A stretch of 43,627 nucleotides of DNA from Escherichia phage TheodorHerzl: the sequence record MZ501107; one strand, 5' to 3'. Position 1 is the first letter of the stretch; each line of letters opens with the position of its first letter. The translations under genes and the position numbers were made by a program. Below the pieces are notes generated by a model. The model did no database searches. It was not told the DNA's origin and saw only the letters and a list, made by a program, of their open reading frames with translations. Shown piece after piece: positions 25,081 to 29,100 of the stretch.

Positions 25081-25310
25081 TTTAAACTCTCAATAAGGGT
25101 CTGTCGGGCGCTTCGCGCAGTAAAGGAGTTGCACACGAAATGGCAACGCTGAGTCATGACAAGCCAACCGGTGAGGTCAAGGCCCATGATGCGTCCGGGA
25201 TGAGACGCGCGCACCACATGATTGCGCCGCGGGTCAATGCCGTAGTCTTTTTGCATTTGGTCTACGACCGCAGGGTCGCGGTCAACGATTAAGATATTCA
25301 TGTAGCTCAC
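25077..25310 (-). CDS. hypothetical protein
   Basis: 77 aa ORF with ATGA overlap to the downstream gene; co-oriented within the operon. Confidence 0.4.
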   Translation of the reverse strand: MSYMNILIVDRDPAVVDQMQKDYGIDPRRNHVVRASHPGRIMGLDLTGWLVMTQRCHFVCNSFTARSARQTLIESLK

Positions 25311-25767
25311 TCTCGCTCATTATTTCAATTTGTGCGCTGCCGGTGGGCGGCGCTTCGTCAAAGATTATCAATTGCTGGCACTTGTTATTGCTCGGCCCGA
25401 CTTCGCCGGTTACAGCATGTATAAATCGGATCCGCCAGTCCAGAAGAATTATCAGGTTTGCAGTCTTCCGGGCCATCTTTGCCCACTTCGTCGACGTGTC
25501 CTGATTCAGTAGCATGACAGTCCGGCGACCGTGCGCTGCGCATTCCACCCACGGCAGCGGATCGGAATACGGCGGATTGCACCACTTCCACCCTTTCAAC
25601 TCTGCCCAGTCCACATCAAGCGCGCTGTGCTCTGCCGTGAAGTAACGCGGTAGCAGATGATTGGCGTCGCTTGCCGCCATATCGTAACGGAATCGATACT
25701 TCCGACGAAGCGGTTTAAATAAAGCTGGCGGCGTGCGCCAGCTATCTTTTTGCTCATTCTTCTGCAT
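25282..25767 (-). CDS. DNA N6-adenine methyltransferase (phage Dam-type)
   Basis: 161 aa. WRTPPALFKPL...YDMAASDANHLLPRYFTAE...WKWCNPPYSD carries the NPPY catalytic motif and a phage-Dam-like N-terminus. Confidence 0.8.
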   Translation of the reverse strand: MQKNEQKDSWRTPPALFKPLRRKYRFRYDMAASDANHLLPRYFTAEHSALDVDWAELKGWKWCNPPYSDPLPWVECAAHGRRTVMLLNQDTSTKWAKMARKTANLIILLDWRIRFIHAVTGEVGPSNNKCQQLIIFDEAPPTGSAQIEIMSESELHEYLNR

Positions 25768-26218
25768 GACCTGGATCTATCGCGTATAAAGGGACTTTAT
25801 TGCCGGTTTTCATAACGCGCTGGACGCGCTTTGACTCCTCGGCGCTCATTGGGCGCATATCAGTGCTATAACCTCCGTTTGATGTATGCCGCCACGCTAT
25901 CAGCACCAGATCTTTCCTGTCGATCTTAGACTGGCTGCACTTCGGTCGCACGTACGCCTCGGCCCGTTTGCAATGCTCGCGCAGACCTTCGGCCGTGATG
26001 CGGTTTAGCGCGACGGTGGTTGTGTACCCGGTGCGCTGCATAATACCCATCAACTCATACAGCAGTTCGAAGCGTTCCTCTAATTCCTTGCGCGCCTTCT
26101 CCTCGCCTTCATAGCTTGCCAGGTAGGTGTCCGCCAACGCGTTCGCACGTTCGGCCTGTTCGCGGGCTTCGAGGCATTGCGCGGCCCAGTAATTTTTCTC
26201 TTCTTGTAAAATTTTCAT
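25754..26218 (-). CDS. hypothetical protein (coiled-coil N-terminus)
   Basis: 154 aa, contiguous with its neighbours in the operon. Confidence 0.5.
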   Translation of the reverse strand: MKILQEEKNYWAAQCLEAREQAERANALADTYLASYEGEEKARKELEERFELLYELMGIMQRTGYTTTVALNRITAEGLREHCKRAEAYVRPKCSQSKIDRKDLVLIAWRHTSNGGYSTDMRPMSAEESKRVQRVMKTGNKVPLYAIDPGHAEE

Positions 26219-26542: not shown

Positions 26543-26866
26543 TTACGCATAAAAGTTCGGGTCGCGTGCAACGTCTACCAGGTAAAGGTTGCTTATGCGG
26601 TTGCCGTAGTGCCCTGGGGTGCGCTGGCGGCACACAACGGCGAAGCCTGGAGGGATTGTATTGCCCGTCGCAATAATCCACGCCACGCGTGCGCCAGACA
26701 GCGTCTTGCCGTTGCATTCGATACGGGTTCCGCCGTCGGCAGTGTTAAGGTTGCCAATCTTGCAGCCGGTGGACTTCAGACGGATGACCCCGGTTTTGCT
26801 GTCGTAGGTGAATAGCTGGTTAGTCATTGCGACCGAAAAGTCGATTGCTTCGAATGAAGTATTCAT
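26543..26866 (-). CDS. HNH-type endonuclease-like protein (putative)
   Basis: 107 aa. The pattern NGKTLSGARVAWIIATGNTIP...NLYLV resembles HNH_3-type homing-endonuclease domains. Assignment from memory. Confidence 0.45.
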   Translation of the reverse strand: MNTSFEAIDFSVAMTNQLFTYDSKTGVIRLKSTGCKIGNLNTADGGTRIECNGKTLSGARVAWIIATGNTIPPGFAVVCRQRTPGHYGNRISNLYLVDVARDPNFYA

Positions 26867-27441
26867 TTTAAATTTTCCTCGTTAACCGCTATCGCGAAGC
26901 CGTTGCCGGTCCATAAGCAGGTCAGCTTCGGATATGAATCGCGGGCGTTGATGTATTCCGGGAAGAGCGGGTGTACGTCATCCTCCGGCAGATATCCCCC
27001 ATACTCCCACGGGTCGAACGAGTGATCCGGCTTGCGCCACTGGGAGGAAAGCACACTGCGCGGATTCTCAATCATATATGGCACTTCGAAGAAGTCACCC
27101 AGGTAAGCGGCGATCTTCGCGGTGCGCACCGCCTTAAGCTGAAAGGCCGGGTCTTTAGCCCGCTTGCGCGGGAAAGCTGGCGCACCGCTCACTGCCAGAT
27201 CCGTACACGGAGGGAATGCATAGATGATATCCGGCGTACCGAAATCGCCGTTCATCGCGCGGTCCACAAAGTCCATATCGATAAACACATTGCGATACCG
27301 GATTCCGCGACCATAAATACGGTAGTCAAGGTAAGACCCGTGATCGGCTTCGGAGTAGTTGAAGCAATAACACTTATGCCCCATCTCGGCAGCACGCTCA
27401 ATCATCAAGCCGCTGCCGTCAAACAATGACCAGATTATCAT
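26863..27441 (-). CDS. short DNA (cytosine-5)-methyltransferase-like protein
   Basis: 192 aa. SLFDGSG (motif I-like), FPPCTDLAVSG (PC motif IV-like) and YMIENPRS (ENV motif VI-like). Too short to hold a canonical target-recognition domain. Confidence 0.45.
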   Translation of the reverse strand: MIIWSLFDGSGLMIERAAEMGHKCYCFNYSEADHGSYLDYRIYGRGIRYRNVFIDMDFVDRAMNGDFGTPDIIYAFPPCTDLAVSGAPAFPRKRAKDPAFQLKAVRTAKIAAYLGDFFEVPYMIENPRSVLSSQWRKPDHSFDPWEYGGYLPEDDVHPLFPEYINARDSYPKLTCLWTGNGFAIAVNEENLK

Positions 27442-28862
27442 TTGCGCGCCTTTTTAGCTTTCATGTATTCCATCAAGTCGTCCTGTATATCTCGCTTACT
27501 GTCGCGACGCTCGGCGACCAATTCGTCCAGTGTCCCGCGCGCCTGGATAATGTAGACGAATACCGGTCGAGGGTGTCCGGCCTGCATCTGGCGAACCGGC
27601 CCGATACGCTCAACGATCTGCGAAAAGTGCTCAAAGTTCCAGGTATCGGAGAAGATTGCCAGGTGATGCCCGCCGTCCTGCAAGTTAAGGCCGTGGCCCG
27701 CCGATGCCGGGTGTGCAAACATGATGGGGATCTCGCCCCTGTTCCACGCTTCCATATCCTTATTGCCCTGCTTACCCTTACCCAACGCGACGCCGTGCGG
27801 AAATTTCTTCTTAAGACGTGCCAGGTCATGCTTATACTGATACGCAACGAGCAACGGCGCGCCGTTCAACTCCTCCACGATACTTTCCAGCGCGTCCAGC
27901 TTCGCGTCGTGAATCTTCACCCACTCGTCGGTCCGTTCGCCGTCTTCGTCCACCTTATACACAGCGCCGGAAGCAAGCTGAAGGCACTTAATTGTCTTCG
28001 CCGCGGCATTCGCCGCTTCCACTGTCCCGCTTTCCAGTTCGGCAAATAGCTCGCTTTCAAACTGGTCGTAAATCTTGCGGGCTTTCTTCGGCAGGTCCAC
28101 AACAACAGGCGTATAGATTGGCTTGTCGCACCCGAAGTATTCAGCCGCGTCAACGGTGAGGGATACATCTGACAGACGTTGTTGTATCTCTTTCTCGGAG
28201 TTCTTTAGCGGAGCGTGCTGCATAGTGAAGCTGCCAGGCTTAACAGGCTTGCTAATGAACCAGCGGTCGGTAAATGCCTTATAACTACTGCCGAGGCGTT
28301 CGCCACCGTCGACAAACCACGTCTGACCCCATAAGTCTTTCAGCCCGTTTGGCGCTGGTGTGCCGGTAAGGTTAATCCAGCGCTTGACGTGCTTATGTGC
28401 AATCGCTGCCAGTGCGCGGGCGCGCTTGCTCCCCTGCTTGCTACGATAGCCTTTCAGCTTAGTCGATTCATCGGCAACAACGACCGTAAAGGGCCACGCA
28501 TCGCCGTAATAGTCGACCAGCCACTCAACCACATCGTAGTTAACACAAACCACGTTAGCGTCGCTCTCAAGCGCTGCAATACGGTCCTTCTCCGGCCCGG
28601 TGCCGTCTACGACCAGCAGGGATGAGAACCGCCATTTCTCCTGTTCCGGGGGCCATGTACCCGACGCAACACGCAGCGGGGCCAGCACCAGTACGCGGTC
28701 CTCATGATGGGACAGGACGCCAGTCTGGAACATTTTATTCAGCGCCCACATTGTCGCGCCGGTTTTACCCGACCCCATTGTCGCCCAGATATTGCATCGC
28801 TTATGCTTGAGGATGAACGCGGTAATCAACTTCTGATATTCGCGGCGTCGGAATCGTGCCAT
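27438..28862 (-). CDS. SNF2/DEAD-like DNA helicase
   Basis: 474 aa from the internal ATG at 28862, which abuts the upstream gene. Walker A ATMGSGKTG, DExx box VVADESTKL, and a C-terminal helicase domain. Confidence 0.85.
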   Translation of the reverse strand: MARFRRREYQKLITAFILKHKRCNIWATMGSGKTGATMWALNKMFQTGVLSHHEDRVLVLAPLRVASGTWPPEQEKWRFSSLLVVDGTGPEKDRIAALESDANVVCVNYDVVEWLVDYYGDAWPFTVVVADESTKLKGYRSKQGSKRARALAAIAHKHVKRWINLTGTPAPNGLKDLWGQTWFVDGGERLGSSYKAFTDRWFISKPVKPGSFTMQHAPLKNSEKEIQQRLSDVSLTVDAAEYFGCDKPIYTPVVVDLPKKARKIYDQFESELFAELESGTVEAANAAAKTIKCLQLASGAVYKVDEDGERTDEWVKIHDAKLDALESIVEELNGAPLLVAYQYKHDLARLKKKFPHGVALGKGKQGNKDMEAWNRGEIPIMFAHPASAGHGLNLQDGGHHLAIFSDTWNFEHFSQIVERIGPVRQMQAGHPRPVFVYIIQARGTLDELVAERRDSKRDIQDDLMEYMKAKKARK

Positions 28863-28866
28863 CTCT

Positions 28867-29100
28867 TTATTCCGCCTTTTTCCAGACTTCAGTTTCACTA
28901 TCCCAGTTCCTCTTTGTGGCGTCGTAGTTGGTGGCGTGTCCGACGTGGATACCGGTCGCACGGAAGCTCTTAAACTTCTGCCAACACACCGTCAACGGCA
29001 GCGGGGTATTCATGCCTGCGATAAACCATACGCGATCTCCTTGTTTACATTCGCCCAGCTTGGTGAGTCGGTAATGTTCTTTCATCGTCATGTCTCCCAA
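28867..29100 (-). CDS. hypothetical protein
   Basis: 77 aa ORF ending 5 nt before the helicase start. Confidence 0.45.
   Translation of the reverse strand: MGDMTMKEHYRLTKLGECKQGDRVWFIAGMNTPLPLTVCWQKFKSFRATGIHVGHATNYDATKRNWDSETEVWKKAE

Follow-up and report, generated by a model that had tools for sequence, protein, structure and literature searches.

The 43,627-nt sequence of Escherichia phage TheodorHerzl (MZ501107), analysed over its whole length as the window, represents an essentially complete Dhillonvirus-type coliphage genome. On its minus strand, between the genes of an SNF2-type DNA helicase and of an HNH-endonuclease-like protein, an open reading frame with an ATG start encodes a 192-aa product with three sequence stretches that resemble motifs I, IV and VI of C5-cytosine methyltransferases. 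The features of the locus are as follows:

27438..28961, minus strand: gene of an SNF2-type DNA helicase, upstream (PF00176, E = 1.9e-10; phrog_62, E = 3.5e-157)
26863..27441, minus strand: dcm-like C5-cytosine DNA methyltransferase gene, allele with a 117-bp in-frame deletion (open reading frame; phrog_757; DNA alignment)
27409..27429, minus strand: motif I, SLFDGSG (AdoMet-binding FxGxG), residues 5-11 (F7, S10 and G11 family-invariant)
27184..27216, minus strand: motif IV, FPPCTDLAVSG, residues 76-86, with the catalytic Pro78-Cys79 (P77-P78-C79-T80 invariant)
27055..27078, minus strand: motif VI, YMIENPRS, residues 122-129, with Glu125 (E125-N126-P127 invariant)
26896..26902, minus strand: deletion junction with one CGGCTTC copy left (three-way DNA alignment; simulated deletion)
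26543..26866, minus strand: HNH-endonuclease-like gene, 107 aa, downstream (phrog_99, E = 8.8e-16; position kept in relatives)

The codons of Cys79 and Glu125 occupy positions 27205-27207 and 27067-27069, respectively. At either end the dcm-like gene overlaps its neighbour within a 4-nt ATGA: its start codon (27439-27441) with the TGA of the helicase gene (27438-27440) and its own TGA (26863-26865) with the ATG of the HNH-like gene (26864-26866). Direct reading of the sequence thus bears out the 192-aa frame, the three motifs and both overlaps as they had been described in the first-pass annotation.

The helicase open reading frame, if delimited mechanically, comprises 507 aa from a GTG at 28961, which is 33 codons beyond the 1,425-bp coding sequence of the relatives; going by the annotation of the latter, translation probably begins with the ATG at 28862 (MARFRRREYQ..., 474 aa). 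The 107-aa HNH-like protein, for which neither Pfam nor NCBIfam yields a match, covers just positions 108-198 of the 383-column phrog_99 profile and may constitute a truncated or degenerate member of the HNH family instead of an active homing endonuclease. A 154-aa open reading frame (25754-26218, minus strand) has no Pfam match; its homologues in relatives are variously annotated as “putative DNA ligase ... no evidence” or “hypothetical”, and the ligase label appears unsupported. A second orphan methyltransferase gene (25282-25767, minus strand) encodes a Dam-like N6-adenine enzyme of 161 aa (PF05869, E = 5.6e-36; phrog_111) which looks intact and reaches 87.5 bits compared to an NCBIfam equivalog cut-off of 97.

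Among the PHROGs profiles the 192-aa protein matches phrog_757, “DNA methyltransferase” (E = 2.7e-64), with the match ending at position 168 of the 247 profile positions. A large protein collection contains 2,384 homologues at E ≤ 1e-3, and by tblastn 1,498 phage records match, including T1-like, rV5-like, RB49-like and N15-like phages; the depositors use labels as different as “hypothetical protein” and “Dcm-like C5 cytosine methyltransferase”. The phrog_757 match and the number of homologues put the resemblance far outside what chance would produce. The homologues are 227-240 aa long and align to residues 1-184 of the query only. Within a family alignment of 45 sequences, F-x-G-S-G, P-P-C-T and E-N-P are invariant. 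PF00145 is the sole Pfam family recurrently matched, namely by 26 of the 45 members at E ≤ 1 (best E = 1.3e-6), and three out of six individually scanned members exceed its 22-bit gathering cut-off (P0023 with 28.5, P0081 with 25.4 and P0031 with 24.7 bits). The matches of these members always cover profile positions 4-94, corresponding to motifs I to IV, and the motif I stretch of the TheodorHerzl protein falls inside the region concerned. For the 192-aa protein itself, the Pfam and NCBIfam scans are empty (no PF00145 match at E ≤ 0.1), PADLOC finds nothing, and searches of PDB chains by sequence and by profile return no match even at E ≤ 10. Because these PDB searches are empty, we draw the kinship to the canonical enzymes from the Pfam matches of the homologues and from fold comparison. 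The AlphaFold model of P0001, an intact homologue of 236 aa, is of high confidence (pLDDT 90.6, pTM 0.89), and Foldseek, queried with it, ranks nothing but DNMT3A/3B/DNMT1 at the top (prob 1.00, E as low as 8e-7). The C5-methyltransferase kinship suggested in the first-pass annotation is thereby confirmed: the Pro-Cys and Glu-Asn-Pro elements are family-invariant, the catalytic Pro-Cys is present in a proper alignment, the best structural matches to the model of the intact relative are all C5 DNA methyltransferases, and no confident match to any family other than methyltransferases emerges.

Compared to the canonical C5 methyltransferases (M.HhaI, M.HaeIII, the catalytic domains of DNMT3A/3B; PF00145) the phrog_757 family shows an identity of 10-17%, is shorter by about 100 aa, offers about 35 residues at the place of the target-recognition domain (TRD) and has no motif X that is recognisable as a separate element. 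E. coli K-12 Dcm (b1961, 472 aa, CCWGG) catalyses the same reaction as the phage Dcm-like family, while in an hhalign comparison with it only motif IV aligns, and weakly so (E = 0.066), placing GFPCQPFSLAG opposite FPPCTDLAVSG. Judged from this alignment, “Dcm-like” is a functional label and does not denote close homology to the E. coli enzyme.

Phage K42, with a genome sharing 95.4% identity with that of KarlJaspers/Bas06, provides the experimental anchor of the family (bioRxiv 10.1101/2023.08.16.553469; the reference list of PMC12746101 gives the published version as Cell Rep 2024;43:114857). In this study, four out of four K42 escapers of retron Ec86 disrupt the 711-bp dcm gene, expression of K42 Dcm is toxic solely in the presence of Ec86, LC-MS reveals a gain of 5mC on msDNA with K42 Dcm, and C82A/E128A/K175A/K176A constitutes an inactive mutant (10.1101/2023.08.16.553469). 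The activating methylation is assigned to a CCTGG site of the msDNA whose mutation abolishes defence, and 34 of 35 Ec86-sensitive phages encode Dcm (10.1101/2023.08.16.553469). That compact Dcm triggers retron Eco1 is also stated in PMC12916289 and PMC12640716. The protein encoded by the 711-bp “Dcm-like” gene of KarlJaspers comprises 236 aa and, along this full length, shares 54% identity with the intact Dhillonvirus protein (E = 8e-86); against residues 1-184 of the TheodorHerzl protein the identity is 56%. K42 and KarlJaspers (Drexlerviridae, Bas06) differ from TheodorHerzl in phage family and genomic context as well as in the intact C-terminus of their protein. The residues C82, E128 and K175/K176 of KarlJaspers Dcm correspond to FPPC, ENP and the two lysines of Y-x-K-K-T (YFKKT; family consensus YPKKT), so that Cys79 of the TheodorHerzl protein is equivalent to C82 of K42 Dcm and Glu125 to E128 of the K42 and KarlJaspers proteins; the second lysine, K176, is replaced by Leu in Dhillonviruses. 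Since C82, E128 and K175 of a K42-type homologue coincide with the family motifs and since 5mC is produced, phrog_757 is a genuine family of compact DNA C5-methyltransferases of about 230 aa. Its members are widespread orphan phage enzymes; the family is already annotated and experimentally characterised and does not represent a new kind of enzyme. A substrate other than DNA, i.e. a nucleotide or RNA, as had been considered initially, finds no support, given that a homologue of 54-56% identity makes 5mC in DNA. The puzzle at the family level is how an enzyme of 230 aa with a TRD of about 35 residues recognises its site.

The dcm region of TheodorHerzl has its best match in vB_EcoS_Sponge (96.5% identity). 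In Sponge (SPONGE_21, QXN70364.1) and in Oekolampad (bas18_0036, QXV83002.1) the gene resides at the same locus, between SNF2 helicase and HNH, with the same overlaps. Compared to these two phages exactly 117 bp, i.e. 39 codons encoding RMPEKKPVFVEKGYSKQYSRLGGKSARTKLIRSLTPRGF, are missing from the TheodorHerzl gene, while intact Dhillonvirus dcm genes comprise 696-711 bp and encode proteins of 231-236 aa; it is because of this deletion that the TheodorHerzl copy is shorter than its relatives. In the protein alignment the P0001 sequence ...WTGNGF-RMPEKKPVFVEKGYSKQYSRLGGKSARTKLIRSLTPRGF-AIAVNEENLK faces ...WTGNGF-AIAVNEENLK in TheodorHerzl. Outside the deletion the TheodorHerzl copy is 96% identical to P0001 and about 96% identical, at the amino acid level, to the “Dcm-like” proteins of Dhillonvirus relatives. 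The most conserved C-terminal block of the family, LGGKSxxTKxIRSLTPRG(F/L)AxAV, is gone, leaving the remnant AIAVNEENLK, and 16 of the 39 lost residues, among them LGGKS, TK and IRSLTPRG, are conserved to at least 95%. All 44 other homologues of the alignment carry the 117-bp segment, as do KarlJaspers and 28 of 28 IMG/VR loci, down to an identity of 33%. The deletion recurs in none of the 85 relatives checked; each of the 57 full-coverage GenBank relatives sampled aligns to the junction as two pieces across about 208 bases, and among 2.9 million viral contigs the junction sequence is absent. Accordingly, the deletion is private to the TheodorHerzl genome. Beyond conserved sites which are broken in intact relatives too, no conserved site is broken outside the deletion, and because there is no such extra decay the lesion looks recent.

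Two other accounts of the gap were considered and rejected. An insertion of the HNH gene which had split the methyltransferase, leaving its C-terminus beyond, does not fit, as AIAVNEENLK constitutes the true C-terminus of the family and the gap is internal; moreover, the HNH gene lies directly 3' of the intact methyltransferase gene in all relatives. Neither can the TheodorHerzl form be the ancestral one and the 117 bp a gain of the relatives, since the segment is conserved family-wide down to 33% identity. In Sponge and Oekolampad a copy of CGGCTTC flanks the stretch on either side, at nucleotides 540 and 657 of the gene, and a deletion between such copies bears the signature of slippage during replication or of a microhomology-mediated event. 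Slippage between these repeats would remove 39 residues while keeping the frame, and with the frame kept, the downstream genes would remain coupled through the ATGA stop/start overlap.

The deleted segment follows a motif VIII-like strand (..YPK-x-TCLWTG) and hence occupies the canonical place of the TRD and motif IX. Its R-S-L-T-P-R-G resembles R-x-x-T-P-R-E of canonical motif IX. From position and pattern resemblance we infer that the lost segment corresponds to a miniature target-recognition region of the family together with a motif IX-like element; the TRD slot of the intact family, made up of about 35 residues plus R-S-L-T-P-R-G, is missing from the TheodorHerzl copy. The initial observation that the protein lacks room for a TRD therefore holds for the 192-aa product, but not as a trait of the enzyme, the segment having been removed by a private deletion. 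C5-methyltransferases such as M.HhaI and DNMT3 hold the flipped base through contacts made by the TRD and motif IX. When the 192-aa protein is modelled (mean pLDDT 87.5), the Rossmann core is kept, mostly above 85, while the C-terminal helix (H224-234 of the intact protein) is missing and the model confidence of residues 141-192 drops from about 91-98 in the intact protein to 75-77. The fold similarity of this model to C5 methyltransferases is no better than that to generic Rossmann proteins; AlphaFold is, though, a poor judge of what deletions do.

As the conserved C-terminal block is lost and the terminal helix is gone in the model, we consider the 192-aa product most likely inactive on DNA. 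The terminal helix would no longer be able to form and the target cytosine would neither be bound nor flipped, leaving a dead enzyme, and TheodorHerzl would then add no 5mC of its own to DNA. The gene is most likely the dcm gene of a Dhillonvirus damaged by a private 117-bp in-frame deletion and encoding a dead enzyme. Against this speak the intact motifs I, IV and VI and Lys172, the preserved frame and coupling, the lack of further decay at conserved sites and the confidently modelled core. Two of the initial proposals hold only in part: “minimal methyltransferase” is apt for the compact family of about 230 aa but not for the 192-aa copy, whose shortness reflects a deletion, and the “inactive regulatory paralogue” is probably inactive indeed, yet a damaged allele instead of a regulatory paralogue. 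The annotation should read C5-cytosine DNA methyltransferase with internal deletion, probably non-functional, and not a new minimal enzyme.

If the 192-aa protein were nevertheless an active C5 DNA methyltransferase which dispenses with a TRD, its specificity being relaxed or absent, it would be the smallest known of its class. The retained AdoMet motif, Pro-Cys nucleophile, ENP glutamate and invariant Lys172 would agree with such an enzyme, as would the core pLDDT of mostly above 85, the kept frame and the lack of any further damaging substitution. We regard it as improbable, since the 16 lost positions are conserved to at least 95% throughout a family reaching down to 33% identity, the specific similarity to C5 methyltransferases collapses in the model concomitantly with the loss of the terminal helix, and the form, found in none of the 85 relatives, is not a maintained variant; furthermore, it is established knowledge that C5-methyltransferases need the contacts of TRD and motif IX. 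Similarly small is the chance that the product still binds AdoMet and keeps some activity, be it sequence-nonspecific C5 methylation or some other function, AdoMet-dependent or as a decoy. In that case no smaller functional core of a C5-methyltransferase would be known, and nature would have put the contribution of the TRD to the test.

With the deletion being known from one sequence alone, an assembly or sequencing artefact absent from the phage population, or a minority variant that chanced to be assembled, had to be weighed as well. We likewise give it little credence: at 7 bp the repeat is much too short to make short-read assemblers drop 117 bp, the precise junction is in frame and shows the classic microhomology signature, and similar repeat-mediated dcm deletions occur in independently sequenced phages. 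Least probable of all is a non-catalytic role, kept or gained by the truncated protein, in AdoMet binding or sequestration, as a decoy for Dcm sensors or in translation coupling, for even though neither the frame nor the two ATGA overlaps have been disturbed and a larger deletion in phages Teewinot and Opt212 is likewise in frame with both termini kept, an in-frame outcome is to be expected from the repeat content (see below), phage AV129 with a plain nonsense codon argues against the need for a protein-level function, and the evidence from family and fold points to no other activity.

The damaged, probably dead dcm allele of TheodorHerzl is accompanied by further natural lesions among Dhillonviruses. 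In AV129 (OR352959.1 18857-19552; L037:864-1559) the very codon of the catalytic Glu has become a nonsense codon (YMI*NPRS); its dcm is annotated as two “hypothetical proteins”. P0005, a metagenomic homologue of 195 aa encoded on a 27-kb contig, is devoid of 36 residues including ENP. A 108-bp deletion between CCGCGCA repeats (nucleotides 271 and 379 of the Sponge gene), simulated on Sponge DNA and compared with the P0005 protein, yields a protein of 195 aa that shares the P0005 junction, ...AFPR|SVLS..., with only two differences elsewhere. In Teewinot (L038:1802-1987) and Opt212 (L039:1801-2001) an in-frame deletion of 510 bp fuses FDGSG of motif I to FRMPEKK, leaving a dcm remnant of 61-66 aa. 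This deletion is flanked by imperfect GGCAnCGGyTT repeats, and one of its endpoints coincides with the GNGF site of the TheodorHerzl deletion. The idea that three in-frame deletions indicate selection for the frame is weakened by the fact that 16 of the 23 repeated 7-mer pairs within the dcm gene are in frame regardless, and by the way in which P0005 came to light, which favours in-frame products. Dhillonvirus dcm thus appears to have at least four independent natural loss-of-function alleles, consisting of the 117-, 108- and 510-bp deletions and the nonsense codon at the catalytic Glu, which suggests that the gene is dispensable, prone to repeat-mediated deletion and perhaps at times counter-selected.

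These lesions parallel the laboratory escapers of retron Ec86. Intact homologues trigger retron Ec86/Eco1 via methylation of msDNA and laboratory escapers disrupt dcm, so that loss of function would render TheodorHerzl invisible to retron-type defence. By analogy, we conjecture that the natural knockouts (117-bp, E125*, 108-bp, 510-bp) might be field-selected escapers of Dcm-sensing immunity, e.g. retron Eco1; the TheodorHerzl deletion may have been selected by a retron or may reflect the neutral loss of a dispensable gene. The main interest of the locus lies in this tie between natural dcm-null alleles and retron sensing. Should the escape reading be true, phages carrying these alleles would plate on retron Eco1 hosts that restrict their intact relatives, a prediction which bears on phage-host work and phage therapy.

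McrBC is an unlikely source of counter-selection if the specificity is CCWGG, because C-5mC-WGG is not an R-5mC site. Within the window CCWGG occurs 138 times compared to 68 ± 7.7 expected from dinucleotide shuffles, 138 being reached in none of 100; the count denotes enrichment instead of avoidance, codon usage was not controlled in the shuffles, and it has no bearing on the 192-aa allele. Some records encountered in the searches deserve mention. MG065640.1 (Campylobacter phage A14b) contains, according to tblastn, a dcm homologue of 39.7% identity. MG065648.1 (Campylobacter phage A144), OQ221563.1 (Acinetobacter phage NJ01) and GQ502199.1 (Sodalis phage SO-1), although named for hosts other than Escherichia, carry sequence 99-100% identical to this region of the E. 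coli Dhillonvirus, and the host labels or the sample purity of these three records look questionable.
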